Source of the DNA: Nitrospirota bacterium
Lineage (GTDB): Bacteria > JACPQY01
Assembly (NCBI GenBank): GCA_016180645.1
Contig: JACPAV010000016.1
Coordinates: 62,001 to 126,000 of the forward strand
Length of the DNA: 64,000 nt
Direction of reading: 5' to 3'
This document shows, piece after piece, positions 1-21,483 of the stretch. The notes beneath the pieces were generated by a model. It was given only the letters and a program-made list of their open reading frames with translations. It made no database searches and had not been told where the DNA came from. The position numbers and the translations under genes are program-made. Each line of letters begins with the position of its first letter. Within the stretch, counting starts at the first letter, position 1.

Positions 1-3000
1 CGGACGTCAGCGTGAAGTTCCCGTTGATATCCAGCCCGCCGCCGGCCGTGACCGAACCTCCACTCTTGGACACCGCAAGGTCGAAATACGTGTCCGCCGG
101 AACGGTTGCGCTGGAAGCGCCGTCGAATTCGACCGTTCCGCTCGCTTCGTTCAGCGTTCCCCACACGGGCGTCGCGCCGCTGCCGTACCGGAGGCGACCC
201 GTGTTGAGATTGAGAGTGCCGCCCGTCCCATCGAAAGCCCCGTTCTGGTCCACGGTGCCGGGCCCTACGTTCAGCGTGGCATTGTTGTCGAAGAGGCCGT
301 TCGCGGTGAGAAGAGTACCGGAGAGATCCATCGTGACCGTCGCGTTGTTCGTCAGAGTCCCGCCTACGGTCATGTTTCGCGCGGAGGCGTCGTCCAGATT
401 AAGCGTGCCCGACGTGACGGTCAGATTTCCATTCAGAGTCAGGTTGCCGGTGACGGTCTTCGTCGAGCCGGAAAGAGTCATCGAGTTGTACTGGTTCCAT
501 GTCGCATCCGTCAGCGCGGGGATGTTCTGGGCGGTGGACCCGTCGAACTGGATCGTGCCGGTGTTGAGCGGAGCGGCCGCGTCACGCAGTTGAAGCCCCG
601 CGGCGGAGAGCGTGTCGCCCACCTTGAGGAGACCCGTTCCGGACCATTCGATCCCCAGCGTGGAGCCGGAGCCCGGTGTCACGTGGCGATCCACATCCAG
701 CGCGCCCGTGCTGATCGTGGCCGCGCCGTTTTGAGACGCGTCGTTCACCACGTCCTTGGCCACGGCCACCGTGTAGCCGCCGATCGCAAACGTCCCCGCG
801 GCCAGTTTCAGGTTGTTCGAGATGCCGAGATTGGACCCCGCCGACTTGGCGCCCGACGCGTCCACGGTCAGATTGTAGAAATCGCCCGAGCCGGAGGACG
901 TCACGGTCGCGGCGCCACCTGCCAAGGCGACGGTGGTGTTGCCGATGACAAAATTGCCGGAATCGGACCAGTTGCCCGAGACGCTGAGGGTCGGGGCTCC
1001 GGTCGCGCCGGCGTCGAGCGTGCCGTTGGCGCCGATCGTCACCGTTCCGCTCACGGATACGTCCGGATCGGCCGGACCATTCGAGACGATGAGGAAGCTG
1101 GCCGCGGTCCCCCCGGTGCCCAAGCTCAGGGACCCGGCGGTGAGGGACGACGTTTTCAAATCGACCATGCCTCCATTCAGGGTCATGGAGCCGGACACGG
1201 AGTGCGAAAGCACCGACCCTCCGTCCAGGTTCAGCGTGCCGGCCTGGACGGTGAGTCCGCCCGAGACCGTCAGCGCGCCCAAGGCGGTAACGCTTCCTCC
1301 TACGCCGTTGTTGACGGTGAGATTGTAGAAATTGGATGGGGTGGCGACATTCTGAGGCGCCGTGCCGCCGAAGGTCACCGTGCCGGTCCGTTCGGTGAAA
1401 CTTCCGGTGCGCGTCCAATGCCCCTTGACTTCAAGATTGTACGAGGAGGCCGACGCATCGAGCGTGGCGCCGGAGGCGATCTCGACGTTGTTTCCGACCG
1501 CATTGGAGCCGGTCTGGTGGCATCCGAGGGAGTAGGTCGCCGCGGAGCTGAATTTCAGGTTGTAGTAAGGTTCGCAGGGAATCGTCTGACTGGTTCCATT
1601 GAAGTGGAAGGTTCCGGTGCCGGTGACGTTTGCGGCAGCAGGCTGATTGTCGGTCACGGCTCCAGACGTCTGGAAAGTTCCGGTTCCCAGATTCAGCACC
1701 GAGCCTGAACTGAGCACGACGCTTCCGGACCCCGCATAGGTTGTGGAGCCGAGGTTCAGCGTCCCGCCGATCGTGGTCGTTCCGGCCGCGGTCAGGTTCA
1801 CGGACGGCAGCGTAATGCTGTTGGACCCGATGGTGAGATGGTTGATCGTGAACGATCCGGACCCGCCGATGGTTTGCGAGGCCGCCGAGGATGGGCTCAT
1901 GGAGAGCGTGCCGGAACCTGCACTGAGCGCGCCGTCGTTGGTCAGATTTCCAAGCAGGGTCAAGGATGATGTCCCCACCGCGAGGGTCGCGGACGATTCA
2001 ATCGTTGCGCTTCCCGCCACGGTCAAAGCCGATCCGCCCTGGTCCAGCGTGGCGCCGGATTTGACGGTGAGGTTGCCGTTGACCGCCAGGTTCCCGCATT
2101 GTTTTACGTTGCCGCTCACAATCTCGAGATGGTTCACTGTCGTGACGGAGCCGGAGAGGGTGCACGCCCCGGTGGACGTGCCTCGGAGCCTCACCGTGCC
2201 CGTCTGCGGGTTCCACGCGCCGCCGGACGCCACAACCGGGCCGACGTCATCGAGGGTCAGCGTCGCGTTGCTGCCGTTCAGCGTTCCCGAAGCGCCTTCG
2301 CCGATGGTGAGCGCGCCGGCACCCGCTCCCGAGAGAAAAGTCACGCCCGCGCCGGCGGCGAAGGAGACCGTGGCGCCGTTGCGGATGGTGACGGCTCTGA
2401 AATTGGGTTCCGCCCCGATGGTCGCCGTCCCGGTAAAGTACACGCGGCCCGCGCCGGCGTTCTGGCAAAGTCCGTCGTCGTCGCCGCTGCCGTCGCACTC
2501 CGGCGTCGTCACGTTGTCCGTCCAGATCCCTCCGACAAGGAGATCGCTTCCCACGCCCGTCATGAGGATGGCGCCGCCCCCTCCCGCGCCATCGTAGAGT
2601 GTCACGTCCGCATTCACGGTGAGGTCGTTCCCGGCCGTCGAGAGGCTCAGTTGGCCGCCGTCGTTGATCTCCAGCATGCGGATTTGCTCGGCGACCACAT
2701 CGATGTTGGGTTGCAACGTTGCCGAGCCGACGATGCAGCGATCATCGGGGACGGGGGCGCCCTGCCCGGTCGGGCTCCAGTTGGCGGCGGCGCTGAAGAG
2801 CGCGCTGGAGGCTCCGGTCCAGTTCCGGGTGCGCACCCACGAGATTTTCCCGTTGGCGTCATTGATCTCGAATCCGGAGCCTCCGCGGTCACCGGAGAAG
2901 CTCACGAACGTCAGGCCGAACGCGCCGTTCAGACTGTTCGCGTTCACGTTGTTGGTCATGGAGGCGTCAAACGTACAGTTTGTGCAGGTCGGGCCGGTTC

Positions 3001-6000
3001 CGTTTTCCATGTGGAACCAGATCGCCTGCGTGGAGCAATTCGCGGCGCCCGTGCACAGCGGGCCGAACGCCACCTCCGTAAACTTCGTGGCCGTGATGCT
3101 TTCGCCCGCCGCCGCCGTGCCGAGAGCCATGCCGGTGGTGTTGGATCGCGTAAATTCGAGGCCCGTGACGTCCAGCGTCGCGCCGGAGTTGATGGTAAAG
3201 GAGGTGAAGTTGGCGCCGATTCCGGAGGTCGTGAGCCTGGCCTTGAGGGGCGCCGAGCCGCTCTGTGTGGTGCGGAAGGTCCCGCCGACCGTCATCGACC
3301 GCGCGGAGGCCGAGTTGTCAAAGGTCAGGATTCCGCGCGCCGCATCCGTTCCCGTCATTTGGTAGGACGAGCCGGCGGCCACCGTAACATTGCCGGCCAC
3401 CGTGAGAGACGCCGTCTGCGCGTCGAAAACGCCGCCGTTGACGCTCAGGTTACCCCCAAAGGAGTGGGTTCCCGTGGAGAGGCCGAATACGCCCGCCGTG
3501 AGCGTCACCGCCCCGATTGTCGTCACATTCCCATTGGCCGTGAGCGCCCCCCCGGACTTGTTGACGGTCAGAAGGTTGAATGCGGTCGCCGCCGCGATGG
3601 TTTGCGATCCGGATCCGTCGAAGGTGACGGTGGATCCCGTGTTGGTGAAGGTTCCGTTGCGCGTGAAATTGCCCGCGAGCAGGATCGTGTCATTCGCCGC
3701 ATCGAGGGTGCCTGCGGCGCCGATCGTCAGGTTGCCGTTCACGTCGAGCGTTTCGGAGCTTGCCGCCGGAGTCGTGCAGTTCTCTCCGATGGGCGCGGAG
3801 GACACGCTCGACACGTTCAGATGATTGAGCGGCATGTTGGCGTTGGCGTTGGCGATGAGCCACTGGGTGACTCCCGGTCCTCCATCCAGAACCACCGTGG
3901 AAAGTCCGGGGGTAAAGGTCGCCGTGTCGGCTGCCGCCTGGCCCAGGCAGAAGGTGCCCGCCAGGTTAAGGGTGACCGCGGTGTTGACGTTTCCATCGAG
4001 CTTCGCGCCCGCCGTGAGGACCAGATTGCCGTCCACGTTCCAATTCCCGTCGATGAGGACTCCCGAGGCCGACGTATTTGTGATCGTCACATGGAAATAA
4101 TCGCTCGCCGAGCCCGATTGGGCGCCCGTGCCGATGAACTCGACCGTCGACGATTGGGCGTTGAACGCCCCGCCGTTGATCCAATCGCCCTTCAGTTTGA
4201 TCGTGGAGGCGCCGCCGTTGAACGTGGCGCCCGACGCGATGATCAGATTCCCCGCGACGTCGAGGGTACCCGTGGCGCTCGCCGCGGCACCGGTGGGCTG
4301 GAGCGAGAGGTGCCAGAAATCGTCTCCCGGACCGGTCGGGATCACGGTATTCGGAGTGGAGTTGAAAACGACGGTGGAATCGGACAGCGGGACGAAATCG
4401 GCGGATCCCGCGCAACCTGTCTCGACCGTGAGCGTATTGTTCACGGTCAAGGTGAGGCCGGAGTTGAGGGTGAGCGTCGCGCCGCTTGCGCCACTGCATT
4501 TGAGCGTCAGGTTCTTGATCGACGCCCCGGCGGCATCCGAAATGACGGGACAGGTGGGAGAGCACGCGGCCGGCACCTCGGCGGAGTCCGTGCCGCCCGG
4601 CACTTGGTCCGGATTCCAATTCGCCGCCGTGTGCCAATTCGCCGTCCCCCCCCCCGCGTCCCACTGGGTGATGCTGTTCCACACGACGTTCGCATCCGGC
4701 AGCGCGGCGTCCTCGTCATCGAACGATCGAGTCTCGCCCGCATTCGAACCGGCGGGGGCGTCCATATCGATCCGGGACGCGCCGGAACCGGACGATTGGA
4801 AGCAGACGTTCATGTCGTTCACGGTCGAGGGAAACGAGTGGCCGTTGAGAGAGTCGGCGCCCGTGGCGGTGAGAGTTCCAGACGACACGTTCACCCACAG
4901 CGCGCAGGAAAAATTCACGGCCGGCGCGCCCGCGCAAGGATCGGAGCCGCAGAGATCCGGTGTGTCCGAAAAGGACACATTGTCAAGATTGACCACGTTG
5001 GAGTTGGACCCGTTCATGTTGATCTTCATGCCGGATGCATCGGCGAAGCCGACGTTCAGCCTGGAGATGTCGACCGTGCCGTTGACGGTGAACGTGTACG
5101 TTCCGGCGACCGAATGAGTGATCGTGGGGCCTGAGCCGCCGGTGCTGAGCGCGCCGCCGGACGCAATCGTCAACGTCTTCCCCCCGGCGAGGGCGAGCGT
5201 CGGCGTGCCCAGGAGTTTGAGCGTGCCCCCGTTCACCGTCACGCTGCCATTGGCCGTGAGCGTCGCGTTGCCCAAATCGAGCGTGCCCGCGTCCACCGTC
5301 ACCGTGCCGCTGCCGGCGGTGGAACTCGTGGTGACGGACTGATTCAGGAGGAGTGTTCCGCCGGACTTGTTGAGGCGGAGCTTGCTGACGTTGATGGTGG
5401 CCGCGCCCGTCACGGTTTGGGACCCGCCGCCGTTGAATTCGACGAGGGTCGCCTTGCTCCCCGAGGTATCGGACAGCGTTCCCTGAATGTCGAAATCCTG
5501 CCCAACCAGGAGATTGAAGCCGGCGGTATCCAGCGCCCCGCTGGAAAGGATCTGGAACTTGTTGGAAACCGTTGTCGCGGCTCCAATCGAGGCTGTGGCG
5601 GAGTTCACCGTGAGATTGTAGAAATTGGTCACGTTCGTCGTCACCGCTCCGCCGCGCCACTCCACGGTGGATTGCTGGGGGGTGAACGTCCCGGTGGATG
5701 ACAACGAGTTGGCGCGGAAGAACGTGCCGTTCCCCGCGCTGTAGGTCGCCCCGGCCGTGATGGTGAAGATGCCGGTATTGGTCAGACGGATGTCCTTCCC
5801 GGTGCTCACGGCGGTGGCATCTCCGGACGCGTCGCCAATCGTCAGGTTGTTGAAGCATTCATCGGTGGCCATCTGCGAGGCGGCGCCGGTCATGACGACG
5901 GTCGTATTGTCCTGCCGGAATCCGTCGTCCCCTGAGGCGCAATCAATGCCGGCCACACTGTTCGTCCACGTCCCACCCACGTTGATCGTTGCGGCCCCCA

Positions 6001-7312
6001 CCCCGTCGTTCAGATTGCCGGAGGCAATCAGGAGGTTGTTGGAAACCGTCAGCGGGGTCGTCGCCACGTCGGCCAGATCGGTCGCGTTGGGAAGCTGGAC
6101 ATTCAGATTGTAGTGGGTTTCATTCGCCCCCGCCCCGCCGCCCGCTCTCGGAAGCGCCGCCGCGTTTTTCCAGACGAAAGTCCCTGTGCCGGGGGCGAAC
6201 GTTCCGTTATCCGTCCACGTGGATCCTGAATTGAAGGTGAACGTGCCTCCCGATGTCAGGGTATGGTTGGCGGCAATCGATGCGGCGCCCATCACCGTAA
6301 TTGCCGCCCCGGAGGCAAACGTCGTGCTCCCAGCCGTCCCATCGCCGAAGGTGACGTCGGTGAACGTCGTGCTGCCGCCGACCGAATGCGCCCCGGCCAC
6401 GCCCGTTTCCACGAAGCGAACGGCCATGCCCGAGCTGGCGTTGAACGTGCCGTTGTTTGTCCAGCTCCCGCCGACGTCCAGGGCAAAGCCGTTGGCGCTG
6501 AGCGTGGCGCCGGAATTGATCGTGAGATTGTTGGCTACGTCGCGGCCGGTGGCGGTCGTCATCGCCGCCGTGATCGAGCTGGTCCCCGCGATGACGAGAT
6601 CGTAAAACCGGTCGATCGGCACGTCCGTGTTCCCCTTGATGGTGACGATTCCGTTGCCCTCGGAGAAGGTGCCGGTCCACGTGAGGGCGGCCGAGGCGTC
6701 CATGATCAATTCCGCCTGGGTGGCATTGTTCCCCATGTTCAAGGTGCCGGTGCTCAGCCGGAAGGTGCCGCCGACTTCCAGTTTGGCCGCGTTCTGCATC
6801 ACACATGAATTCGCCCCGGTCGCGGTGATTTCCACGTCCGTGAATTTATTCGCCCCTGTGGTGTTGCCCGATACCGCGCAGGGTCCGGATGCCCCGCTGA
6901 AAATCACATCCCCGCTCTGATGGGTGATCGTTGCGCCCTGGTTGTTGAACGCGCGTCGAATGGAGAAGTTCCTCGTCACCAGGTTGAAGGTGAGCTGCGA
7001 GCCGGATTGCAAGGTCAAGTCACGCATCGTGGCGTTGCCGGAGTTGTCTGCCGTGGGCCACGAACAGGTCCCGCATTTGGTGGAGGGAATCTCGACGTCG
7101 CTGCCGTTGGCCGGGATGCTGCCTTCATCCCAGTTGCCCGAATTCCTCCAGATACCGGACACGTCACCTTCCCAGCACCAGATGCCGTCGCCTGGGTTGG
7201 AGGTGCAGGCGTGGGCCGCGCGCGGCAAAGCCGCCGTGATGAGTAATGCGTGAAGTGTGATGAGACAAAGAAGCAGACGACCCGCGCTCCGGTGGTGTTT
7301 CACGTTACCCAT
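1..7312 (-). CDS. Giant secreted beta-helix/adhesin-like protein (>2437 aa, 3' end outside window)
   Basis: Manual translation from ATG 7312: MGNVKHHRSAGRLLLCLITLHALLITAALPRAAHA (signal peptide) then CTSNPGDGIWCWEGDVSGIWRNSGNW. The same frame reads ...VSKSGGSVTAGGGLDINGNFTLTS at the window start. No stop-terminated ORF in this frame appears in the track, consistent with an open frame to position 2. T/G/N/S/A-rich with repeated xLxVxGNLTIxxGxTL strands; 13 nt downstream of the previous stop. Confidence 0.9.
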   Translation of the reverse strand, partial: MGNVKHHRSAGRLLLCLITLHALLITAALPRAAHACTSNPGDGIWCWEGDVSGIWRNSGNWDEGSIPANGSDVEIPSTKCGTCSWPTADNSGNATMRDLTLQSGSQLTFNLVTRNFSIRRAFNNQGATITHQSGDVIFSGASGPCAVSGNTTGANKFTDVEITATGANSCVMQNAAKLEVGGTFRLSTGTLNMGNNATQAELIMDASAALTWTGTFSEGNGIVTIKGNTDVPIDRFYDLVIAGTSSITAAMTTATGRDVANNLTINSGATLSANGFALDVGGSWTNNGTFNASSGMAVRFVETGVAGAHSVGGSTTFTDVTFGDGTAGSTTFASGAAITVMGAASIAANHTLTSGGTFTFNSGSTWTDNGTFAPGTGTFVWKNAAALPRAGGGAGANETHYNLNVQLPNATDLADVATTPLTVSNNLLIASGNLNDGVGAATINVGGTWTNSVAGIDCASGDDGFRQDNTTVVMTGAASQMATDECFNNLTIGDASGDATAVSTGKDIRLTNTGIFTITAGATYSAGNGTFFRANSLSSTGTFTPQQSTVEWRGGAVTTNVTNFYNLTVNSATASIGAATTVSNKFQILSSGALDTAGFNLLVGQDFDIQGTLSDTSGSKATLVEFNGGGSQTVTGAATINVSKLRLNKSGGTLLLNQSVTTSSTAGSGTVTVDAGTLDLGNATLTANGSVTVNGGTLKLLGTPTLALAGGKTLTIASGGALSTGGSGPTITHSVAGTYTFTVNGTVDISRLNVGFADASGMKINMNGSNSNVVNLDNVSFSDTPDLCGSDPCAGAPAVNFSCALWVNVSSGTLTATGADSLNGHSFPSTVNDMNVCFQSSGSGASRIDMDAPAGSNAGETRSFDDEDAALPDANVVWNSITQWDAGGGTANWHTAANWNPDQVPGGTDSAEVPAACSPTCPVISDAAGASIKNLTLKCSGASGATLTLNSGLTLTVNNTLTVETGCAGSADFVPLSDSTVVFNSTPNTVIPTGPGDDFWHLSLQPTGAAASATGTLDVAGNLIIASGATFNGGASTIKLKGDWINGGAFNAQSSTVEFIGTGAQSGSASDYFHVTITNTSASGVLIDGNWNVDGNLVLTAGAKLDGNVNTAVTLNLAGTFCLGQAAADTATFTPGLSTVVLDGGPGVTQWLIANANANMPLNHLNVSSVSSAPIGENCTTPAASSETLDVNGNLTIGAAGTLDAANDTILLAGNFTRNGTFTNTGSTVTFDGSGSQTIAAATAFNLLTVNKSGGALTANGNVTTIGAVTLTAGVFGLSTGTHSFGGNLSVNGGVFDAQTASLTVAGNVTVAAGSSYQMTGTDAARGILTFDNSASARSMTVGGTFRTTQSGSAPLKARLTTSGIGANFTSFTINSGATLDVTGLEFTRSNTTGMALGTAAAGESITATKFTEVAFGPLCTGAANCSTQAIWFHMENGTGPTCTNCTFDASMTNNVNANSLNGAFGLTFVSFSGDRGGSGFEINDANGKISWVRTRNWTGASSALFSAAANWSPTGQGAPVPDDRCIVGSATLQPNIDVVAEQIRMLEINDGGQLSLSTAGNDLTVNADVTLYDGAGGGGAILMTGVGSDLLVGGIWTDNVTTPECDGSGDDDGLCQNAGAGRVYFTGTATIGAEPNFRAVTIRNGATVSFAAGAGVTFLSGAGAGALTIGEGASGTLNGSNATLTLDDVGPVVASGGAWNPQTGTVRLRGTSTGACTLSGSVTTVNHLEIVSGNVKQCGNLAVNGNLTVKSGATLDQGGSALTVAGSATIESSATLAVGTSSLTLLGNLTNDGALSAGSGTLSMSPSSAASQTIGGSGSFTINHLTIGSNSITLPSVNLTAAGTTTIGGTLNLGSTTYAGSGSVVLSSGSVLNLGTGTFQTSGAVTDNQPAAANVTGTGTFHFNGTSQTIPCEPYYNLKFSSAATYSLGCHQTGSNAVGNNVEIASGATLDASASSYNLEVKGHWTRTGSFTERTGTVTFGGTAPQNVATPSNFYNLTVNNGVGGSVTALGALTVSGGLTVQAGTLNLDGGSVLSHSVSGSMTLNGGMVDLKTSSLTAGSLSLGTGGTAASFLIVSNGPADPDVSVSGTVTIGANGTLDAGATGAPTLSVSGNWSDSGNFVIGNTTVALAGGAATVTSSGSGDFYNLTVDASGAKSAGSNLGISNNLKLAAGTFAIGGYTVAVAKDVVNDASQNGAATISTGALDVDRHVTPGSGSTLGIEWSGTGLLKVGDTLSAAGLQLRDAAAPLNTGTIQFDGSTAQNIPALTDATWNQYNSMTLSGSTKTVTGNLTLNGNLTVTSGTLNLDDASARNMTVGGTLTNNATVTMDLSGTLLTANGLFDNNATLNVGPGTVDQNGAFDGTGGTLNLNTGRLRYGSGATPVWGTLNEASGTVEFDGASSATVPADTYFDLAVSKSGGSVTAGGGLDINGNFTLTS

Positions 7313-7325
7313 CACTCATCACCCT

Positions 7326-10300
7326 TCACGATGTCTTCAATCGTATGACCGGGCCTTGGATCGGCTGCGCATCCACGGGCACGATTTGTTGCGAACTCTG
7401 CCCCACGGCCGTCAGGTCGGCCGGCCCATCCCAATGAACCACCACGGACACTTCCGGAGGAGGCGACCCGATGGTGGCTGAGGGTTCCGACACGCCGCCT
7501 CCACACCGGGCCATGACCACTCCCAGAACGACAGGACCGGCTGCGAGGAGGGACAGTCGCCGGCCGGCCCGCCCCCTGCGAACCGTGATCAGGAGGACGA
7601 TGAGGATTCCGCCTCCCGCGAGCAGTCCTGGAAGTAACCGATGGAAACCGCCGGCGATCGCGTCATCGACGCCGAACCGGAGCGAAGCGATCAACCGCCT
7701 GGATTGCCCCGCGGGCACGAGAACGCGCAGCGCTTCGAACCGCGCCTCGCCCTCATCAAGATTCAGGATGGCGGTGCCCACTTTCGAGTCGCTCCGGCTT
7801 AGCTTCAGATCCGCGTTCGTGTCCTCGTAGAGATCCACTCCCGAGAGGACACCGTCGGGAAGATCGGACAACCCGCGGACCGAAATCGTCGTGACGAGCA
7901 GGTCCTCGGCCTTTGACGCATCCAGTTTCCATCCCACGGCGGTCACGCTGTCCGGGAAATCAAGACGTATTTCATCCTGGGCCGGCATGAGGGCCGACGC
8001 CGTCAGCCGGCCCACGTTCTCCACCGTCACCTTCGGACCGGACAGAGGCAGCCCCATCACCTCAATCGCGGCGTTTGAAACGGCGCCCTCGGCCACGATC
8101 CCGCTTCCCGCGTCGATCCCCGCCGGGAAATCTTCGCCATGCCGGAGGGCGTCGGTAAAGTCATAAACAATCAGAAGCGGAAGGGCCGCGCCCACCGGCA
8201 CGACTAACGCGAGAGGCTCGAAACGGGCGACGGCGTTCTCCGTCTCCTCCGCGCGCGCGAAACGTTGCGGCGAGCCCAGAAGGGTTTCTCCCGGATCCGC
8301 CGATCCGTTGGCATTGGAGTCCTCGATGAGACGAATCTCCCGAACGCTCCGGACCTCGTCTCCCGATCCCCTGTCCGATACGGTCAGCGACCGCACGCGC
8401 ACGTCCTCCACGCTTCCAGCCGACAATCGCAGGGAAAGCACGGGGACGCCGACTGCATTCGGGCCGACCTTCAGCGGCGCAGCCTTCGCGGGATCGAGGG
8501 AAACGGTCAGCGAAGTCTTGTCGGAGATCCGCTTGGCGGGGCCGGCCAACGGCAACGCCGCCACCTTGAACGGTTTTCCCGAACCCATGCCTTTGCCCAA
8601 GATGCCGTCCACCGGGATCGTCAGGGCGAAGGTCTGTCCGAAGACCGGCTGATTCGTCAGGTCGCATGCCACGATCCAGGTCTGCGTCGAACCCGCGGGC
8701 AGCCGGAGGTCCAAACCCGTCCAGGAGATGGCGCCGTTGTCCGAACTCAAAGACCGGTCACTGAGAATTTCCGTTTCGCCTTCTTCGACCGAGCCGTTGC
8801 CGTTCCGGTCCACCACGCCGCGCACGGCGCGGATTCCTTTCGCGTCGTCCCCCGTACCCGAAGCTTGGACCGTGAGCGATGTGACTCGGATTTCTTCCGT
8901 CGGCCCCGCCGTCAGGGAGAATTGGAGAAGAGCCAGGTTGCGGAGTCCTTTTTTCTCGTTGGATTCGCCCGGGCTGGCGGCCGTCTTGGCCAGGATCAGG
9001 GAACCGGTATCCTTGACGATGACTTGCACATCCGCGGGCAGGCTGGTCAAGGCTCCATCCGACACCGTGAGGCGAAAGGCAAGCACCGGCTGTCCTTCAA
9101 TGTCCGGGGCGGTGAAAGTTGCGGACTTCGCCGTGGGGCTGGAGAGCACGGCCGCAGGGCCGGCCGTCTGGGACCAACTGTAGGTGATGGTCTTGCCGTC
9201 GGGATCGAAGCTCTTGGAGCCGTCGAGGGTGACCGACATTCCCTCGAAAACGGTGTACCCCTCCCCCACGCTCGCAACCGGCCTGTTATTGAGGAGATTG
9301 GCCGCACCCAAGGTTGGGGTCCACTGGTCAAACCAACCCGATGGACTGTTCGCGGGTCCCTGCGCCTCCATCGAATGGCCTTCCGCGAACGCAGGGATGA
9401 ATTGGCCCACCGTCCAGATGGCGGCGGAGTCGGCCACGTCCTCCCGGGCCTGGCCCCCATCGCCCCACTGCAAAAAATCCACCAGGTTGTCGTCGAGGGT
9501 AAAATCACTGTTGTCCAGGAACAGAGAGAGGGTATCTTTTGAATTCCCCAGGTCCGTCCACGGCCCGGTGAAAACGTCAGAAGTCGTTTTCGTCCCCGCT
9601 TCATTCACGTGCACCGTCAGCAGCCCCCCCGCGTCGACGAACGTTCCGGGGGGAAAGCACCACGCGGACGATCCGCAAGCGGAGGCCGTGCACAGGCACA
9701 TGCCGTCCAACGCCTGTCCGAAGGCCCCGGTGTTCTTGAGTTCTATTCTTTCGTGGGTCGCGTCGTTCCCCGTCGGGTCCGCCAAGATTTCGTTGAACAG
9801 AATTTCAAACTGATCGGCGCGTGCGCCGGAGGCGCGCGCAAGCAGTAAACCGTGAACCGCAAGCAGCAGGAAAACGAAAGAGAACCAACGCAAGCCTTCA
9901 CCCCCACCCGCACCCTCCCCCGTCGAGGGGGAGGGGAAGAGAGGGCTGCCCGTGCCCCTTTCCATCCCTTCCCCCCTTGAGGGGGAAGGGGAGGATGGGG
10001 GGTGCTGAACGGTTACGAGCCTTCGAGCACGGCGAAGGCGCAAGAAGAAAAAGCCGGCAAGGATCAGCACGGGAACTGTGCCGCCCACGTCCAGGGGCAG
10101 GTGGCCGCCGATGTGGGCGCAGCCGCAGCCGCCTCCCCCGTTGCTCGCTGCTCGTTGCTCGTTGCTCGTAGGCTCGGCCTCGGGGGTTCCCCCGAACGCC
10201 CCCTGATTGATGCGACCCCCGTTCGGCTCCGGCTCCATTAAGAACTCATCGTCCGGATCGCCCGCGTCGATCAAAGGCGACCCCGGCGCCAGTTTGAAAT

Positions 10301-12962: not shown

Positions 12963-13016
12963 TATTAGGATGTCTGGCACGCAAGAGACGGTCCACCCTC
13001 CCATCGGATGTGCGGA

Positions 13017-13044
13017 ATTGTATATTATTTCAAAGGAATGTCCA
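13017..13044 (-). promoter_or_regulatory. Putative sigma70 promoter
   Basis: TGGACA-N16-TACAAT in an AT-rich patch upstream of the large surface protein gene. Confidence 0.65.
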
Positions 13045-13183
13045 CTTGGAAGGCCCGTTTTTCCGATGGCTTTGCACGACCCGGATACTTGCATCGAAAA
13101 AGCTCACCTGGAGTGAGAACTTCATGACGGACTGGTCGAGTGCAATTCAGATAGTCATCCCGTGGCCTTGCGGGGCGTCACCG

Positions 13184-13199
13184 TGTGACGCAGATCACA
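13184..13199. promoter_or_regulatory. CRP/FNR-family binding site (CRP-type core)
   Basis: TGTGA-CGCAGA-TCACA, a perfect TGTGA-N6-TCACA core, in intergenic DNA. Confidence 0.6.
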
Positions 13200-13233
13200 A
13201 ATTCAAGTGTGAGTAGTTTTCTTGCGCGGGGCG

Positions 13234-15345
13234 CTATCGCAAATCGCCGGTCAGCTGGTCCTGTGGAGAACCGGTGTTCTCCAGATTCCCCGAAGAGTCC
13301 TTCACCCCATCCCAGGCGATCTGAAAGCAATCTCCGGATTCATTGGCCGAACCCGCGACGGTGAGTTCGAAATGGCCTTCGCGGCCATTGACCCAAACGA
13401 ACGTACTCTGTCCCGGCACCGTGGTATTCGAAGCGGCCGTTCCGATATCGGAGCAGCCTGTTTGTCCTTCATCGGTCAGCGTGAGCGTGGGGGAAACCTT
13501 CGTATCCATGAACTCGCTGCAACGAACGCGAAGATAGATTTTCTTGTCGGTGGCGGTCGTGTTCTGGCCGCTGTCATTTTGCCCGGCGGCATTGATCGCC
13601 GGCTGATTCCCCGATGCGGAATCCAGGTCCGCGCTGCATGCGGCCGGCGATCCGGAGAGGGCGCACAGGCTGCACGTGGGCGGTTTCTTGTCGATGAACT
13701 TGCGTGCCGTGTCCGGATTGGGCGCCGAGGGGAGTCCGTCCCGATTCCGGCCCACCACCGACACGAAGATCTGGTTTCCCTCGGAGAAGGGCGTGGCGTC
13801 ATCCACGGCCTCGCCCACCGTTCCGTCGAGGTCGGCGTCATCATTGGGCGTCACATCGAAGGCCGCCAGGGAGAGGGTGGCCACCACGAATTCGCCGCGC
13901 GATCGCACGTTGTTCGCAGACGGCGTGATGTCCGTCCAGTCGGCGTTTCTCTTCGTATCCCGGGCGAACACGGCATAGCCGGAGACATCGGCGAGACTCT
14001 TCCACAGGATCTGCACGGTGGCCGAGTTCCAATCGACATCCGATTCCGTGCGGGTGGGACTGCCCACGTCCGAGTCCAGCGTCACGCCGGTCACGGCCGG
14101 GGCGTCCGGCTGATTGCTCTTGACCGGCCGGAGGTTGAGCGTGAAGCCCGTGCCTCCCAGCGTGGTCCCGAGGGTGCTCCGCGCATTCGCCGAAATCGCT
14201 AGCACGTAGCGCCCTCCGGGCGCCAGGTCCAGGGACGTGGTCACCAATAACTTTACGCCGTTTTCCAGCTTGAGGTTCACGGCCACCGGATCTCCCTGGC
14301 CGGCGTTTCCGCGCAGCGTGACCAGCGGCGAGGGTGGATCCGTTGCGGACCCCGCATCGATATTGGCTTCCAGAGAAGCGTCCATCGGGATGTTGAACAC
14401 GATCGCGATCGGATTCTGGCTCGTGGTGTATGGAATGGCGCGGAAGAGCGCGCCCGGCTCCACGGTGGACCACACCACGGACGGAACGGGTCGGCCGGGA
14501 TCGGAGCACAGGCTTTCAGGCGGCGGAGAGAGGTTCAGCGGATTACAGGCCGCCGAACTCCGAAGATTGATCAACACGTCTTCGCTCCCCTCGGCGTTGC
14601 GCCCGAACTGGGTCAGATTGATCGCGGTGGAACTGACCCACGTCCCGTATTCGGGCACTCCATTCCCGTCGATGTCGAGTGGAAGGACGTACAAGTTGCC
14701 GGCCGCGAGCACGGCGCGAGGGAGTTTGGCCTCCTCGGTCCCGATGGCAAAACGCCCCTCACCGTCCGTGTTCACTCCCCAAACGCGGGGGACATCCTGA
14801 AATCCCTGGGCCAGAAAATCCACGACGAAGTTGACGCCCCGATCTCGAAACTCCCCTCCGCCATCCGTCGAAAAGATGCGGCCCCGCAGGATGGCGTTAC
14901 GCTGTACGAGGGAGGCGTTCTGCGTGGCGATGGGATCCTCGGAGGAGACCGGTTGGGTCTGCGCGGCCGCGCCCGTAATCAATCCCACGATGGTCACCTG
15001 GGTCGACCATTCCGAGTACACCCGCTCCTCGCCCTGCACCATGGCGCTGCCCGCGAAGGAAACGGGAATCGCCGCCTCCACCGGAACATTTCCGATGGCA
15101 TACGACCCCGCCTCGCTGAAACGGGTCTGGGGGTCGTCGTCCAGCGTCAGCGTCGTATTCCACTTCTTGTCGAAGAAGGCCGAGACCTGGATCCGGGAGA
15201 GCCGTTCGCCGCCCTCCGCATCCCGCACGATTCCCTGGATCGTACCCCGATTCACACGGATGTTTTTTTCGGCGACCGGTTGCTCGATGCAACCCGCGGC
15301 CAGCAGGGTCGCGAGCGCTATGAACCGCTCAGGCTGGTGGAGCAC
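13234..15345 (-). CDS. Lipoprotein with carboxypeptidase-regulatory-like, Big_5 Ig-like and FN3-like domains
   Basis: Part of ORF 13234..15618; lipobox LAAGC after FIALATLL; GTIQGIVRDA..G..Y; IAIVFNIPMDAS and VRCSEFMDT (Ig-like); Cys pairs. Start at GTG 15345 is inferred and uncertain. Confidence 0.7.
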   Translation of the reverse strand: MLHQPERFIALATLLAAGCIEQPVAEKNIRVNRGTIQGIVRDAEGGERLSRIQVSAFFDKKWNTTLTLDDDPQTRFSEAGSYAIGNVPVEAAIPVSFAGSAMVQGEERVYSEWSTQVTIVGLITGAAAQTQPVSSEDPIATQNASLVQRNAILRGRIFSTDGGGEFRDRGVNFVVDFLAQGFQDVPRVWGVNTDGEGRFAIGTEEAKLPRAVLAAGNLYVLPLDIDGNGVPEYGTWVSSTAINLTQFGRNAEGSEDVLINLRSSAACNPLNLSPPPESLCSDPGRPVPSVVWSTVEPGALFRAIPYTTSQNPIAIVFNIPMDASLEANIDAGSATDPPSPLVTLRGNAGQGDPVAVNLKLENGVKLLVTTSLDLAPGGRYVLAISANARSTLGTTLGGTGFTLNLRPVKSNQPDAPAVTGVTLDSDVGSPTRTESDVDWNSATVQILWKSLADVSGYAVFARDTKRNADWTDITPSANNVRSRGEFVVATLSLAAFDVTPNDDADLDGTVGEAVDDATPFSEGNQIFVSVVGRNRDGLPSAPNPDTARKFIDKKPPTCSLCALSGSPAACSADLDSASGNQPAINAAGQNDSGQNTTATDKKIYLRVRCSEFMDTKVSPTLTLTDEGQTGCSDIGTAASNTTVPGQSTFVWVNGREGHFELTVAGSANESGDCFQIAWDGVKDSSGNLENTGSPQDQLTGDLR

Positions 15346-15515
15346 TGTTGACTGAGAGGATGGAATGGATTGTTGGCCTCCGCGGTGGTCTTGCCGCAGG
15401 ATACGAGCGCGCTCACTTCGAACACGGCCTGGGATTCGATCTTCGGTGTTTGATAAGGGAGCTTCCGGCTTTGATCTCCGGATTCCCTTCCGGTCCGCGC
15501 AGTTGTTTCCGCCAC
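15318..15515 (-). CDS. Putative RiPP precursor peptide (65 aa)
   Basis: GTG start with AAGAGG 5 nt upstream: MAETTARTGRESGDQSRKLPYQTPKIESQAVFEVSALVSCGKTTAEANNPFHPLSQQCSTSLSGS. YxxPxI leader motif and a Cys/Ser/Thr-rich C-terminal segment. Confidence 0.65.
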   Translation of the reverse strand: MAETTARTGRESGDQSRKLPYQTPKIESQAVFEVSALVSCGKTTAEANNPFHPLSQQCSTSLSGS

Positions 15516-15534
15516 CCTTGCCTCTTGGGCGAAG

Positions 15535-15563
15535 AGTAAACCATGACCCTCGCAGGGTGTCAA
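15535..15563 (-). promoter_or_regulatory. Putative sigma70 promoter for the peptide/lipoprotein unit
   Basis: TTGACA-N17-TTTACT; overlaps the imperfect palindrome TGACCCT-CGC-AGGGTGTCA. Confidence 0.5.
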
Positions 15564-15602
15564 GGCGAAAACGAACCGCAGTTTTTTCCTGACAAGTCCG
15601 GC

Positions 15603-15631
15603 TTGACAAATTAAGCACTTGTATTTACTCT
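15603..15631 (+). promoter_or_regulatory. Putative sigma70 promoter (near-leaderless) for the ExeA-like gene
   Basis: TTGACA-N17-TACTCT, 9 nt before ATG 15641; no Shine-Dalgarno. Confidence 0.55.
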
Positions 15632-15640
15632 ACTATTCTT

Positions 15641-16492
15641 ATGTACCTCGGCTATTGGGGCCTCGTGGCGGCACCGTTCCCGATGGCCCCCGACCCCCGT
15701 TTTTTTTTCCTGGGCTCTTCCCATCAGTCCGCCCTTTCGAAATTGTACTACGGGATGCAGACGTGCAGCCCCGGCATTCTCGTCACGGGGCCGCACGGAG
15801 CGGGCAAGACCTTTATGCTGCGTCTCCTCATCCACACGCTGCCGCCGGAGAAATACAATGTGGGCCTCCTGTTCAATCCTCCGCTCGGCACCGATCAGCT
15901 CCTTCCCGAGCTGATGTACCAACTCGACGTTCCGATCTCGAACGGGGGGCCGCAGGAACAGCTCCGCGAGCTCTCCGACCGGATCATCAGCGACCATCTT
16001 CGAGGCATCCACACCCTACTTCTCATCGATGAAGCCCAACTTCTGCCGCCGGAATCACTCGAGCAGCTTCGCGTCCTGGCCAACTACCAACTGGATGCAC
16101 AAAGTCCCGTCACGCTCATCCTTTCCGGACTTCCCAGCCTCCGCCCCACCCTCGCGCCGAATGTCGCCCTCCTTCAGCGATTTGCCATCAGCGTTTCGAT
16201 CACGCCCCTCACTCCACGCGAAACGGTTCGATATGTACTCCATCGTCTCCGATGCGCCGGCGCCGTTCGGGCCATCTTTACGGACGAGGCTCTCCAATCG
16301 GTGCAACGGCACTCGGGGGGCGTTCCCCGGCTGATCAATGCCTTGTGCGATGCATCCCTGCTTGAAGGATGGACCGAGCGCCGGACGTATGTGGAAGGGT
16401 ATTTGGTGGAAAAGGTCGCCCGTGCCTCCGCCTTTCGAGTGGCTTCCCCGGTAGCCGCAGGCTTCATGCCTGCGTCCGAGGAGGCACCCTAA
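15641..16492 (+). CDS. ExeA/GspA-family AAA ATPase (ATPase domain only)
   Basis: YLGYWGL..PF..PDPRFFF N-terminus, Walker A GPHGAGKT, Walker B LLLIDEAQ, SGGVPRLINALCD. Confidence 0.9.
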   Translation: MYLGYWGLVAAPFPMAPDPRFFFLGSSHQSALSKLYYGMQTCSPGILVTGPHGAGKTFMLRLLIHTLPPEKYNVGLLFNPPLGTDQLLPELMYQLDVPISNGGPQEQLRELSDRIISDHLRGIHTLLLIDEAQLLPPESLEQLRVLANYQLDAQSPVTLILSGLPSLRPTLAPNVALLQRFAISVSITPLTPRETVRYVLHRLRCAGAVRAIFTDEALQSVQRHSGGVPRLINALCDASLLEGWTERRTYVEGYLVEKVARASAFRVASPVAAGFMPASEEAP

Positions 16493-16581
16493 AGGATGCG
16501 CCTACCAAGAGCCAACGGCTTCCCCCGGCGGATAGGGTCGAAAGTTACCCGGTCCAGAGTCGAGGGTTTCAGAGATGGCAC

Positions 16582-17978
<1,397 letters not shown>

Positions 17979-18155: not shown

Positions 18156-19316
18156 TTGCCACTTCCGGACGCTTGCTTGAAGAATACGGACCTGCTCAAA
18201 GGGAGTGTGGGCGGATCGCCCGCGGCGCAGTCTCCACAGGCGCCTCCTCCCGCTCCGGGACGCAAAATGCGGATGATCGATACGATTCGCCCCGAGGCTC
18301 CCCCCCCCCGGGAAACGACTCGCCCCGTCCCGATTCAAGTCCAGGCCGAACCGGAACCCACAGCCCGTCCCACACCCGGCTCAGAGCGCCCGCCGAATCT
18401 CCCCATTCCCGTTGAATCGCCGCATCCTGAGATCCATGGAGGCGTGCCCGCGCATCGGCGGGCCAGTTCGCTGGAGAAGTTCGAGCAGAGCCTGACCGAC
18501 CTGTTCCACAGGGCGCGGCAGAAAGAACCGGCGGTCCTCCCGGACGATTTTTGGCTCGATGTTCACGAATTGGTGGAGATGGTGCCTGAAGACCCCGATG
18601 GATTTCTGGCTCACGTGTTTGAAATGGGTCCTGATGATCCCGAGTGGCCGCTCGAACACCACGCGATCAATGTGGGTATCCTCTGCATCCTGGTCGGCCG
18701 GCATCTGAGACTGGATGAGCACGACTTGAGAGATTTGGCCGGTGGGGCGCTGGTGCACGACCTCGGACTCGCCCCGTTGAAGCGACTGACGGAGCAGAAC
18801 CGCCGGCTCACGGATCGGGAACGCCGTCTCATCAGCCTGCACGCCTACGAAGGTGAAAGACTGTTTGCCGATGCCAACAAGGGGTTCGATACCGTCCAAC
18901 TGATCGTGCGACAAAGCCAGGAGCGTGAGAACGGGACAGGCTCGCCGGAAAAAATCTCCACCGATGCCATCCATCCTCTCTCAAAGATTGTCGGAGCTTG
19001 CGACGCCCTGGAGAGCCTGACCCATCGACGGCCTTACCGGCCGATCTCCACTCCCCGCGCGGCCATTCAGAAACTCCTCGATGAAAAAGAGAAATACGCT
19101 TCTCCCGTGCTGAAGGCCATGTTGACCTGCATCACCCCCTATCCTCCGGGCAGCGTGGTCCACCTCAGCACCGGTGTGCGGGCGCGCGTCAAGCGCGTCA
19201 ATGCCGGGAGCTGTCTGCGTCCGGTAGTCACGCCTTTCGGGCCCGGCAAGCACGAGGGAATCGATCTGGACTTGATGCATCTGCCTCACGTCTGGATCCA
19301 AGAACTGAAAGGATAG
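18156..19316 (+). CDS. HD-GYP-like protein with degenerate catalytic motifs and Pro-rich N-terminus
   Basis: HHAINV, GALVHDLG, QSQERENGTGSP (vs QHHERxDGxGYP), CDALESLT.RPYR, YPPGSVVHLSTG; start uncertain. Confidence 0.8.
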   Translation: MPLPDACLKNTDLLKGSVGGSPAAQSPQAPPPAPGRKMRMIDTIRPEAPPPRETTRPVPIQVQAEPEPTARPTPGSERPPNLPIPVESPHPEIHGGVPAHRRASSLEKFEQSLTDLFHRARQKEPAVLPDDFWLDVHELVEMVPEDPDGFLAHVFEMGPDDPEWPLEHHAINVGILCILVGRHLRLDEHDLRDLAGGALVHDLGLAPLKRLTEQNRRLTDRERRLISLHAYEGERLFADANKGFDTVQLIVRQSQERENGTGSPEKISTDAIHPLSKIVGACDALESLTHRRPYRPISTPRAAIQKLLDEKEKYASPVLKAMLTCITPYPPGSVVHLSTGVRARVKRVNAGSCLRPVVTPFGPGKHEGIDLDLMHLPHVWIQELKG

Positions 19317-19323
19317 GCGCGGG

Positions 19324-21483
19324 GTGGAACGTCCGGCCACCGTTTCCTTCCCGCAGGTTGTCAAGATCATCGCCAGGCGGAAGGCCATCGTGGTCCTGTC
19401 CTGCGTCATCGGCGTGGCCATGGGAATGTTCCAAGTCCGTTCCAAAGCCCCGACCTATGAGGCCACCGTCGTCATCCAAGTCAAGTCTCCGCCGCCCAGC
19501 GGTCAGGGCGGGTACTTCGAGACCGTCCAGCATTCCGTCGTCCAGGCCTACACGGCTTCGCTCGTGATCACCTCCACTCCCTTTCTGCTGCGGGTCGCCA
19601 AGGAACTTGGGAAGATTCCCCGTGAGATGTCCTGGGACGATGTGAACAAGTCCGACATTCACCTCGGAGTCATCAAGGCGCTCAGGTCCAAGATTACGGC
19701 CAACCAGCGGCGGGGTGAAGGGCCGACGCCGTTCGTCGAGATCACCGCCCATTCCGGAGAACCCGAAGAAGCACGGGATGTCGCGAATACCGCAGGGCGG
19801 GTGTTCATCTCCTATCACCGCGACAACGTGGTCAAGGTGGAGTCCGAAGCTCGCGAGTACCTCGACCAGCAGAAGACGCTCCTCTCCGGCCAGCTCGCAG
19901 AAGCACAGGAAGACCTGCTCCGATTCAAGACCCAGCGGGGCATCGTGGACATCGCTCCCGAACGCCAGCGAGCCATCCAGGAGAGGGTGGACCTGACGTC
20001 CACTCTCGAATCGCTGCAAGGCAAAGAGGAAAAGCTGGATGAAATGGCCGTCCGCTTCTCGGACGACCGCAATACCCACCGAGATGACATCCTGTCCTTG
20101 GGACTGAAAACGGCCGGGGTGGACGTCGGCGCACTCTTCGAATCGCTCCTCCAAGATGTCACCGCGCGGGATGTCCTGATCCAGGATCTGACCCCCGAGC
20201 ACCCGGAGATCATCCAAATCGACCGCCGCGTCTTCAACGGTTTCAAGCGGCTGAAGGACAAGATCCACGAGGATCTGGATCAGGTGCACATTCAGCTGCG
20301 CGGGTGGGAAACTCGGCACGCCGCGCTCCTGAAGGAGGAAACGGAGCTCCTCCAGCTGGAGGCGCACGTGGACATGGTGCGGAAAAGCCTCGAAGGGCTC
20401 GACCAGGAACTCCAGGAGGTGGGCCTCAAGACCATCTACAGCGGCGAGCGCGCCCAGATCATTCAGCCTGCCGTCACGCCCGAGCGTGGATTCCGAAAGC
20501 AGTGGCCGACGTTTGTCACGGCGGGACTGCTCCTGGGATTCGTGATGGGGCTCTTCCTCGCCTTCGTTCGCGAGGCCTTCGACTTCTCCCTTCGGCAGAT
20601 CGAAGAGATCGAGGAACTGCTCAAACTGAGCGTCCTCGGTCTGATCCCCCGCCACACGCCGGGCCGAGGAACTCTCGCGGAAACCTCGCCGAAACCCTAC
20701 GCCCCCTCGATCGTCGAACGGGTCCCCCTGTTGAGCTTCCCCCGATCGCCGGTCTCGGAAAGTTTCCGAACGCTTCGCACCACCGTCCGCCGGATCGAGC
20801 CCGGCCATGAAGTGTACCTCGTGACCAGCGCCAGCCCCCAGGAGGGAAAATCTCTCCTCTCCCTCAACCTTTCCCTGGCCATGGCCCAGATCGGACTGAA
20901 AACGCTCCTCGTTGAGGCCAACATGCGCCGTCCCACCTTGGACAAAGTCATCGGTTTCAAGTCCTCCCCCGGCCTCATTCAAGTCCTCCAGGGAGCGATC
21001 GACTGGCACGAGGCGGTTCGCACACTCCCGGACCTCCTGCTCTCATCATGGACGCTTGATCTGGCGGAGGGGTCGGGGTTGGACCGGTTGGATTTCATTC
21101 CATCCGGAGGAAGCATCCATCATCCGTCCGAACTGATCGAAGACGGGTTCGACAATTTCAAACTGGCCGACGAGTGGCGCAAGGCCTACGACGCGGTCAT
21201 TTTCGACGCGCCTCCCGTGGTGCCGGTCACGGACTCCGCCACGCTGGCCCGCTTCGCCGATCGGATTCTACTCGTCTATCGCATGGGGCGCACGCCTAGA
21301 GACCTCGTCCAACGCGCCAAGAAGAATCTGGAAGCCGCCGGCGGGAAGATACTGGGCGTCATCGTCAATGACGTCGAGTTCCGGGAAATCTCCGTTGGCG
21401 TCGGGTATCGCTACGGCCGGTACTATCATGCCGCGGAGACCACCCCCACGCGATCTTCCCGCCGGCAGAAGAAAGCCGCCTGA
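19324..21483 (+). CDS. Wzc/GumC-type polysaccharide co-polymerase with BY-kinase domain
   Basis: N-terminal TM, long coiled coil, second TM, ESFRTLRT, Walker A TSASPQEGKS, LLVEAN, VIFDAPP, C-terminal Tyr cluster GYRYGRYYH. Confidence 0.9.
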   Translation: MERPATVSFPQVVKIIARRKAIVVLSCVIGVAMGMFQVRSKAPTYEATVVIQVKSPPPSGQGGYFETVQHSVVQAYTASLVITSTPFLLRVAKELGKIPREMSWDDVNKSDIHLGVIKALRSKITANQRRGEGPTPFVEITAHSGEPEEARDVANTAGRVFISYHRDNVVKVESEAREYLDQQKTLLSGQLAEAQEDLLRFKTQRGIVDIAPERQRAIQERVDLTSTLESLQGKEEKLDEMAVRFSDDRNTHRDDILSLGLKTAGVDVGALFESLLQDVTARDVLIQDLTPEHPEIIQIDRRVFNGFKRLKDKIHEDLDQVHIQLRGWETRHAALLKEETELLQLEAHVDMVRKSLEGLDQELQEVGLKTIYSGERAQIIQPAVTPERGFRKQWPTFVTAGLLLGFVMGLFLAFVREAFDFSLRQIEEIEELLKLSVLGLIPRHTPGRGTLAETSPKPYAPSIVERVPLLSFPRSPVSESFRTLRTTVRRIEPGHEVYLVTSASPQEGKSLLSLNLSLAMAQIGLKTLLVEANMRRPTLDKVIGFKSSPGLIQVLQGAIDWHEAVRTLPDLLLSSWTLDLAEGSGLDRLDFIPSGGSIHHPSELIEDGFDNFKLADEWRKAYDAVIFDAPPVVPVTDSATLARFADRILLVYRMGRTPRDLVQRAKKNLEAAGGKILGVIVNDVEFREISVGVGYRYGRYYHAAETTPTRSSRRQKKAA

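Follow-up and report, generated by a model that had tools for sequence, protein, structure and literature searches.

A putative orphan precursor gene from an unnamed, radical SAM-associated family of ribosomal peptides in a Nitrospirota bacterium

Short precursor peptides with a conserved leader, served by a stand-alone PqqD protein, a radical SAM (rSAM) enzyme with a SPASM domain and a peptidase, are known from the pathways for pyrroloquinoline quinone (PQQ; PqqA/D/E), mycofactocin (MftA/B/C) and the sactipeptides (SkfA/SkfB), and these features are shared with the peptide family described here. In lasso peptide clusters, homologues of the HPr kinase phosphorylate the linear precursor at its strictly conserved C-terminal Ser, and a second enzyme can attach hexoses to the Ser phosphate, according to a published review (PMC9266682). 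In this work, a stretch of 64,000 nucleotides of Nitrospirota DNA (assembly GCA_016180645.1, contig JACPAV010000016.1, positions 62,001 to 126,000), referred to below as the window and located on the contig labelled C11, was analysed for a hidden 65-aa precursor-like peptide gene that an original prediction, made from the letters alone, had placed at 15318-15515. Sequence comparison indicates that this open reading frame (ORF) is likely to encode an orphan precursor of an unnamed ribosomal peptide family matured by an rSAM/SPASM enzyme. The family cassette differs from the PQQ, mycofactocin and sactipeptide systems in its kinase-like gene of PEPCK/HprK fold and its S24/S26-type peptidase, and its core, CGK...C...Ser-COOH, differs from those of PqqA, MftA and SkfA.

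By motif and profile comparison, the peptide ORF is a real member of a widespread, unnamed family of small peptides with the motif K-x-x-Y-x-x-P-x-I...FE..AL(x)CGK...C...Ser-COOH. Direct translation of the minus strand reproduced the 65 residues that had been quoted for it. When 41 genomes were searched by tblastn with the peptide, its own genome proved to contain two more copies (E 9e-8 and 9e-6), which lie on contigs C44 and C23 and are both 54-aa ORFs ending in Ser. The 341- and 337-aa frames around these copies were rejected as Arg-rich artefacts, and a 103-aa ORF after the C44 peptide, also Arg-rich and lacking any family match, was treated as non-coding. A gap of 15 nt separates the C44 copy, which is equipped with a GGGAGG site, from the 376-aa rSAM/SPASM gene before it. 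Two weak matches also proved to be true members, one from G001 (E 0.18), which represents the sole sister genus, and one from G015 (E 0.07), an unrelated genome of low GC. Across these five members eleven columns are invariant (K18, Y21, P24, I26, E33, L37, C40, G41, K42, C58 and the C-terminal S65), and the window ORF carries all eleven residues at 34-40% identity to the other members.

A profile of the five members, searched against 1.84 billion representative proteins, gave 285 matches at E<=1e-3, six of them at E<=1e-10; the best 150 of the 285 are 43-141 aa long, and the 50 inspected share the same pattern. Counted by these profile matches, the family spans at least 285 sequence clusters. 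A degenerate back-translated DNA pattern run over species-representative genomes, which fixes L-x-CGK and is blind to the L-x-x-CGK variant of the window type, matched at least 122 stretches, 80 of which were fetched with their flanks; all 80 loci hold a family peptide, giving 86 peptides, 84 of them unique. Among metagenome contigs, a strict pattern written for the insertion variant had no match, and a relaxed one gave 92 stretches, 80 of them fetched (L153-L232), 15 of which hold true family members. Most of the other relaxed-pattern matches belong to an unrelated transposase-like protein and were dropped; this protein is highly repeated, its N-terminus fits Y..P.......FE...L..CGK, and many of its copies are truncated or contain stops. 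Homologues conserving the Y..P..FE..A..CGK pattern singled out in the original prediction therefore exist among the 285 profile matches, at 80/80 genome loci and at 15 metagenome loci.

The membership of the window ORF was also examined with a profile of 78 peptides from other phyla only, which was searched against 95,056 six-frame segments of the window's genome. Exactly four segments matched: the C23 copy (1e-8), the C44 copy (5.4e-8), the window ORF (7.1e-8) and a divergent copy on C25 (9.9e-6). Since this foreign-only profile recovers the window ORF as one of four matches genome-wide, the ORF is more than a chance reading frame. Its lower E value of 1.2e-13 was obtained with an alignment whose first row is the window ORF itself, and that score is not independent. 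When 14 family peptides were compared with Pfam and NCBIfam at E<=10, only four chance-level matches appeared, the best at E 0.03 and all far under the cut-offs. Family members are on record as 'hypothetical protein', the nearest Protein Atlas clusters are unnamed hypothetical proteins, and a literature search that left subscription journals and bioRxiv supplements outside its scope found no paper on the family. The earlier suggestion of an undescribed system agrees with these results, as the family has no Pfam or NCBIfam model and no paper on it was found.

Neighbouring genes were counted at the 80 loci, all from other phyla, on the same strand and within 5 kb, using profiles seeded from G015 genes and iterated. 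A PqqD protein lies near the peptide in 66/80 loci, a small S24/S26 peptidase in 64/80, an rSAM/SPASM enzyme in 63/80 and a kinase-like P-loop protein of PEPCK/HprK fold, about 250-300 aa long, in 60/80. Together with the precursor these genes form a compact five-gene cassette, common in Acidobacteriota, Elusimicrobia, Armatimonadota, Planctomycetes and Methylomirabilota; its usual order in Acidobacteriota is peptide, peptidase, kinase-like protein, PqqD, rSAM. PqqD, rSAM/SPASM and HPr-kinase-like genes had been named in advance as possible company of the peptide, and these, with the peptidase, are indeed its usual neighbours. Fourteen of the 15 peptidases tested match the Pfam family Peptidase_S24 (E 6.8e-8 to 0.022), and three also match S26. 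The kinase-like protein has invariant H120, K137 and D150 and a GxxGxGKTT motif; its consensus has Glu where the published H-K-D-D motif has the second Asp. PEPCK_ATP is weakly matched by 18/18 kinase-like members, and a predicted structure (pLDDT 87.1, pTM 0.85) has ATP-PEPCK (E 3e-6, TM ~0.5) and HprK/P as its top folds. ABC exporter homologues occur within 10 kb in 17/80 loci. In 12/80 loci the peptide is an orphan, with no partner genes, and orphan peptides adjoin sedolisin, subtilase or trypsin-PDZ proteases, or housekeeping genes. At one locus (L066:6624-8006) an orphan family peptide adjoins an NTP_transf_5 nucleotidyltransferase. Nucleotidyltransferases of this kind accompany HPr-kinase homologues in phosphorylated and glycosylated lasso clusters, as stated in the review cited above (PMC9266682).

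The 84 unique peptides show further constraints. The last residue is Ser in 83/84. Ahead of the CGK Cys, Ala occupies position -3 in 83/84 and a small residue occupies position -1 in 80/84 (Ala 42, Ser 30, Thr 8), both positions having been left free by the search pattern. Ala-x-small is the cleavage rule of signal-peptidase-type enzymes, and its presence before CGK fits the S24/S26 peptidase gene of the cassette. The predicted core has a median length of 18 residues (range 17-67), contains two Cys in 71/84 peptides and three in 13/84, and holds only a few residues that are invariant across the family. Two forms depart from this outline. A long form of 86-108 aa occurs in tandem arrays of three copies (L043:9806-10965) and two copies (L089:9607-10255); it keeps the leader and CGK, has a Gly/Ser-rich core of about 60 residues with PPPGSWH, FTGH and GPGGTS, and ends in Ser-Ser. 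The array of two has no maturase within 10 kb and adjoins a 1727-aa subtilase. Another member (L036:9851-10192) continues to 113 aa, has no terminal Ser and is followed by a full cassette; it is likely a frameshifted or decayed copy.

The original prediction had left two kinds of chemistry open for the window peptide, lasso formation and radical-SAM cross-linking, and only the latter is borne out, by the usual rSAM/SPASM and PqqD neighbours. A lasso precursor would be suggested by the Y..P.I motif of the leader, by the Glu at core position 7 counted from Cys40, which is indeed present, and by the lasso cyclases and B1/B2 pair encoded on C25. However, residue -2 of the window copy is Val and not Thr, as had been noted, and Thr(-2) is found in 0/84 unique peptides. 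Just 11/84 have an acidic residue at any of core positions 7-9, and blastp at E<=1e-6 with the lasso genes of the window's own genome as queries found a cyclase or B2 homologue within 10 kb at 0/80 genome loci and 0/15 metagenome loci. In addition, the lasso genes on C25 have their own classic precursors (Y..P.L...GD....LT). On the first three of these grounds the lasso option was rejected, and we regard it as the most improbable of the explanations considered.

Comparison with named models places the family, on the scores obtained, in none of the systems compared, namely mycofactocin, SynChlorMet, GeoRSP, HprK_rel_A/B and XrtA/PEP-CTERM. The C44 rSAM enzyme is closest to AhbD (heme b synthase, 138.4 bits) and MftC (137.5 bits) among NCBIfam models, the G015 enzyme has MftC first (123.4 bits), and the other MftC score of the family is 115.5, against a cut-off of 265. 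For the C25 enzyme the best NCBIfam models are NirJ2, AhbD and MftC, all far under their cut-offs, and the nearest solved chains are SkfB (57.1 bits) and PqqE (44.4 bits). The gene set resembles that of SynChlorMet (ScmC, ScmD, ScmE, ScmF), with a ScmC-like P-loop protein, a PqqD relative and an rSAM/SPASM enzyme. However, the C25 proteins score only 27.9 bits against 125 for ScmC (E 1.4e-6) and 29.6 against 100 for ScmD (E 5.9e-7), the family rSAM enzymes score 92.2-104.5 bits against a cut-off of 400 for ScmE, and SynChlorMet has two rSAM genes where the family cassette has one; the literature search found no paper on the SynChlorMet cassette. GeoRSP models also scored under their cut-offs.

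The closest parallel to the kinase-like gene is provided by the lasso kinases PadeK, ThcoK and PsmK, whose precursors conserve a C-terminal Ser, as the family does (83/84). These kinases are likewise P-loop proteins of HprK/PEPCK fold with invariant His, Lys and Asp, but their partners are a cyclase and a protease, whereas in the family the partner is an rSAM/SPASM enzyme. HprK_rel_A gave 16.6 and 40.8 bits with kinase-like proteins against a cut-off of 200, and HprK_rel_B was also under its cut-off. By analogy, the system would work like the pathways that combine rSAM/SPASM enzymes and PqqD, supplemented by a kinase resembling those that act on phosphorylated lasso peptides.

From the gene content of the assembly, the window copy is an orphan, and every cassette partner is encoded on other contigs. 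The earlier statement that no maturase lies in the window agrees with the annotation, since no SPASM or PqqD match was found on contig C11, nor were adjacent rSAM/SPASM, PqqD, kinase-like or peptidase genes. Proteins with an RRE, which had been proposed as binders of the leader, are present in the genome as three stand-alone PqqD genes and one fused match. Family profiles detect rSAM enzymes on C44 (6e-113) and C25 (4e-108), PqqD proteins on C25 and C31, kinase-like proteins on C46 (the best match, 2.8e-35) and C25, and an S24/S26 peptidase on C31, the only one of the family type in the genome. On C31 the order is PqqD, an ExeA-like AAA_22 paralogue, HD_5, a Wza-like exporter (Poly_export/SLBB) and the S24 peptidase. 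The C25 cassette comprises a kinase-like gene, PqqD, rSAM/SPASM, a divergent 57-aa peptide and an ABC exporter, and its enzyme is the best match in the genome for 56 of the 63 foreign family rSAM enzymes, the C44 enzyme being the best match for 5/63. The C44 enzyme has a 57% identical orthologue in G001, where the 153 nt between the gene and the contig end hold no family peptide.

Two of these contigs carry further genes of interest. An island on C25 (L147, G000:C25:128000-147900, ~4700-16500) contains three Asn-synthase-like lasso cyclases, a B1 (PqqD)/B2 pair and two lasso precursors, and also holds a second HprK-like gene, with a Wzc/HD-GYP pair 3.5 kb beyond the kinase-like/PqqD/rSAM/peptide/ABC cassette. 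On C44, a 749-aa GMC oxidoreductase with an N-terminal extension of about 250 residues converges on the peptide gene (L009:10498-12747, G000:C44); it matches three MftG models and models of choline and cholesterol oxidases, all under their cut-offs.

Structure prediction of a complex between the C31 PqqD protein and the window peptide gave weak support, with a score of 0.50 against 0.01 for the best of three controls. The mark used for such predictions is reached by 116/157 solved complexes and 2/215 mismatched pairs; among those reaching it with a score of 0.60 or less are only 18 of the 157 solved complexes, and both of the mismatched pairs. At least 93% of the contacts agree between runs, and the partner pLDDT is at least 51. 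Because complexes of recognition domains with leaders have already been solved, the score may reflect likeness only.

The invariant features of the family predict cleavage at A-L-small / C-G-K, cross-linking via the two Cys and modification of the terminal Ser. In the pathway that we consider likely, the leader (K..Y..P.I...FE) would be bound by the PqqD protein of C31 or C25, and the rSAM/SPASM enzyme of C44 or C25 would use the two invariant Cys to cross-link the short core. The kinase-like protein of C46 or C25 may phosphorylate the invariant C-terminal Ser, a step proposed by analogy with the HPr-kinase homologues of lasso clusters (PMC9266682), and the C31 S24/S26 peptidase would remove the leader at the A-L-(x)-small / C-G-K boundary. 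The product probably acts with a surface apparatus controlled by HD-GYP and Wzc-like proteins, as a signal, ligand or primer, which is the least certain step. We infer the expression of the peptide, the nature of the cross-link, the phosphorylation, the cleavage site and the biological role from the sequences.

The same gene set could instead yield a small peptide-derived cofactor, as PqqA and MftA do, which would be used by, for example, the downstream beta-propeller proteins and would be neither a secreted signal nor an antibiotic. The combination of PqqD, rSAM/SPASM and peptidase follows the logic of PQQ and mycofactocin synthesis, the top NCBIfam models are AhbD and MftC for the C44 enzyme and MftC for that of G015, and the core has only a few invariant residues. 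Both in the window and at an Armatimonadota locus (L099) the peptide is followed by PQQ_2-type propeller proteins, and the GMC oxidoreductase with its weak MftG matches converges on the C44 copy. However, none of these scores reaches its family cut-off (265 for MftC), a PQQ_2 propeller also occurs simply as a structural fold, for instance in BamB, such a partner is missing from most cassettes, and the ABC exporter homologues near 17/80 loci are consistent with export. We therefore hold a cofactor precursor to be improbable.

Several observations weigh against a functional precursor at the window. No maturase lies within it, so that processing in trans has to be assumed, and all partner scores are under the cut-offs of named NCBIfam families, so that the chemistry is not readable from a known family. 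The window peptide has one additional residue between Leu and CGK, its predicted core is 26 aa long against the family median of 18, and its third-position GC is 0.65 compared with 0.71-0.79 in neighbouring genes. A promoter consensus scan did not list the TTGACA-TTTACT site upstream of the gene, the -10 element of which is poor, with no A at position 2. The locus was found in no RNA run listed, four DNA runs from one study, which may be the source of the assembly, being listed instead, and a search of the sister genome G001 (84% complete) found no PqqD.

Some of these points would suit a relic, that is, a duplicated precursor gene that landed in a surface-protein locus and has kept its frame but is no longer made or processed. 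The missing maturase, the insertion before CGK with the atypically long core, and the lower third-position GC are all compatible with such an origin, as is the orphan state of 12/80 foreign loci, some of them beside housekeeping genes. However, all eleven invariant positions, including the terminal Ser, have been kept at only 34-40% identity, and a good ribosome-binding site is present. Moreover, at four separate places (the window, C23, G001 and L099) an orphan copy is closely joined to the gene of a large exported protein. The start of the C23 peptide overlaps the stop of the preceding gene, which encodes a 1611-aa PPC/fn3 protein, and the G001 peptide lies just downstream of a gene for a 2252-aa protein; the last ~600 residues of these two proteins are common, with 40.7% identity. 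At L099 the peptide overlaps a 915-aa PQQ_2 propeller gene by 17 nt. A relic is in our view an improbable account, and an orphan precursor processed in trans remains the preferred one.

The immediate DNA context of the gene is listed in Table 1. As had been proposed, the ORF is buried in the apparent 5' extension of a lipoprotein ORF, a 794-aa frame at 13234-15618 that is read in another phase. A GTG at 15345, which overlaps the final 28 nt of the peptide ORF, is a plausible start of the lipoprotein, because it is then followed by a signal peptide ending in an L-A-A-G-C lipobox. Of the expression signals claimed for the peptide, the ribosome-binding site is present (AAGAGG, 5 nt before the GTG), and the promoter stands only in part, with its TTGACA and spacer intact and its -10 element deficient as described above. 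The overlap with the lipoprotein start would permit translational coupling, and the ORF is short and seen in no RNA run listed, as would also be expected if the leader of the lipoprotein operon held an upstream ORF that arose by chance, or that serves regulation alone, and yields no peptide. This is very improbable given the match to the profile from other phyla (E 7.1e-8), with only four genome segments matching, and the result of an Rfam search of 14800-16000, which gave 0 matches at E<=1. As a practical point, in high-GC genomes such short genes are masked when a neighbouring ORF has a false 5' extension.

Table 1. Positions of the peptide gene, its predicted parts and signals, and the flanking genes in the window.
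Feature	Position	Strand	Details
Precursor-like peptide gene, 65 aa	15318..15515	minus	GTG start 15515-15513, TAG stop 15320-15318
Predicted leader	residues ~1-39, 15515-15399	minus	K18, Y21, P24, I26, E33, L37
Predicted core	residues 40-65, 15398-15321	minus	C40-G41-K42 at start, Cys58, Ser65 last
Shine-Dalgarno-like AAGAGG	15521..15526	minus	5 nt upstream of the peptide GTG; read from the sequence
Promoter-like TTGACA (15563-15558), 17-nt spacer, TTTACT (15540-15535)	15535..15563	minus	-35 6/6, -10 4/6
Predicted lipoprotein, 703 aa	13234..15345	minus	no Pfam/NCBIfam match; paralogue on contig C17 aligns only from residue 34
Exported protein, 1922 aa	7326..13094	minus	PQQ_2/BamB-type beta-propeller, beta-helix and PKD domains
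Protein >2438 aa, continues beyond the window	2..7315	minus	no Pfam family at curated cut-off
ExeA-like AAA_22 ATPase, divergent	15641..16492	plus	TIGR03015 181.3 bits, cut-off 324.5
Receiver-domain protein	16369..17256	plus	start uncertain; 124-nt overlap with the end of the ATPase gene
LytR_C-domain protein	17358..17978	plus	domain match
HD_5 (HD-GYP-type) domain protein	18156..19316	plus	domain match
Wzc-like chain-length determinant/tyrosine autokinase	19324..21483	plus	TIGR01007 122.7 bits, above cut-off 108.05

Gene annotation agrees with the arrangement first described, in which the peptide lies upstream of three large proteins on the same strand and is divergent from ExeA-like and Wzc-like genes. 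The true start of the receiver gene is probably further downstream than listed, because the receiver domain begins only at residue 112. The divergent operon shares an ExeA-like ATPase (best model TIGR03015) and a Wzc-like autokinase with the XrtA/PEP-CTERM system. However, the ATPase is under the TIGR03015 cut-off, and no exosortase (PF09721, E<=0.01) was found in the window's genome, which is 97% complete. To our knowledge, neither HD-GYP genes nor a peptide-maturation cassette is part of XrtA/PEP-CTERM.

The association of the peptide with a surface or exopolysaccharide system, proposed from the window alone, is backed by gene order in the window's genome and in two other lineages, as an association only. 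The genome contains 4 ExeA-like genes, 9 Wzc-like genes and 13 HD-GYP-type genes, with members of the Pfam family HD_5 taken by us to be of HD-GYP type, and a family component is found no more than 10 kb away from 5 of the 13 HD-GYP genes. Family components occur with surface-module genes at the window, on C23 (two HD-GYP/Wzc pairs), on C25 and on C31; among the six component loci in the genome, 4/6 have HD-GYP genes, three of them also Wzc-like and two ExeA-like genes. In G015 the order is a coiled-coil protein, AAA_22, HD_5, kinase-like, PqqD, rSAM, peptide and peptidase. A metagenomic subfamily, which comprises 14 of the 15 true metagenome members, includes a locus (L216) with the order 1338-aa giant protein, peptide, kinase-like, rSAM, a 450-aa protein, AAA_22, HD-GYP and Wzc. 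This order is kept at L189 and L232 as far as the contigs extend, the gene between rSAM and AAA_22 encoding 389 aa at L189, and the AAA_22 proteins encoded after the peptide cassette at these three loci are 41-42% identical to that of the window. Of the four subfamily loci whose sequence continues for at least 2 kb past the rSAM gene, three have AAA_22. This repeated embedding of the peptide and its helper genes in ExeA-like/HD-GYP/Wzc modules suggests that they have a role in the construction or regulation of the cell surface.

Against such a role speaks the fact that the link is not general: of the 80 genome loci, 10 have an HD-GYP gene within 10 kb and 2 have AAA_22. In addition, one metagenomic locus (L177) has no AAA_22 in the 5 kb past its rSAM gene, and the loci within the genome are not independent observations, because they are paralogues. 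A surface-module setting is unusual for peptides of the radical-SAM type. It remains a doubtful, though conceivable, proposal that the family forms a new class of cross-linked, C-terminally phosphorylated peptides with a role in surface-polymer assembly and not in antibiosis, in which the mature peptide would be a signal, a ligand or a phospho-Ser primer for the ExeA-like/HD-GYP/Wzc apparatus and the adjoining giant exported proteins. If true, this would link ribosomal peptide maturation to surface control by c-di-GMP and tyrosine kinases in at least three bacterial lineages.

Apart from the peptide family, HD-GYP and Wzc-like genes recur as adjacent pairs in the 4.7-Mb genome, the HD_5 and Wzc-like genes at 18156-21483 of the window being one example. 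Their recurrence suggests a repeated regulatory module serving several surface polymers or giant proteins.

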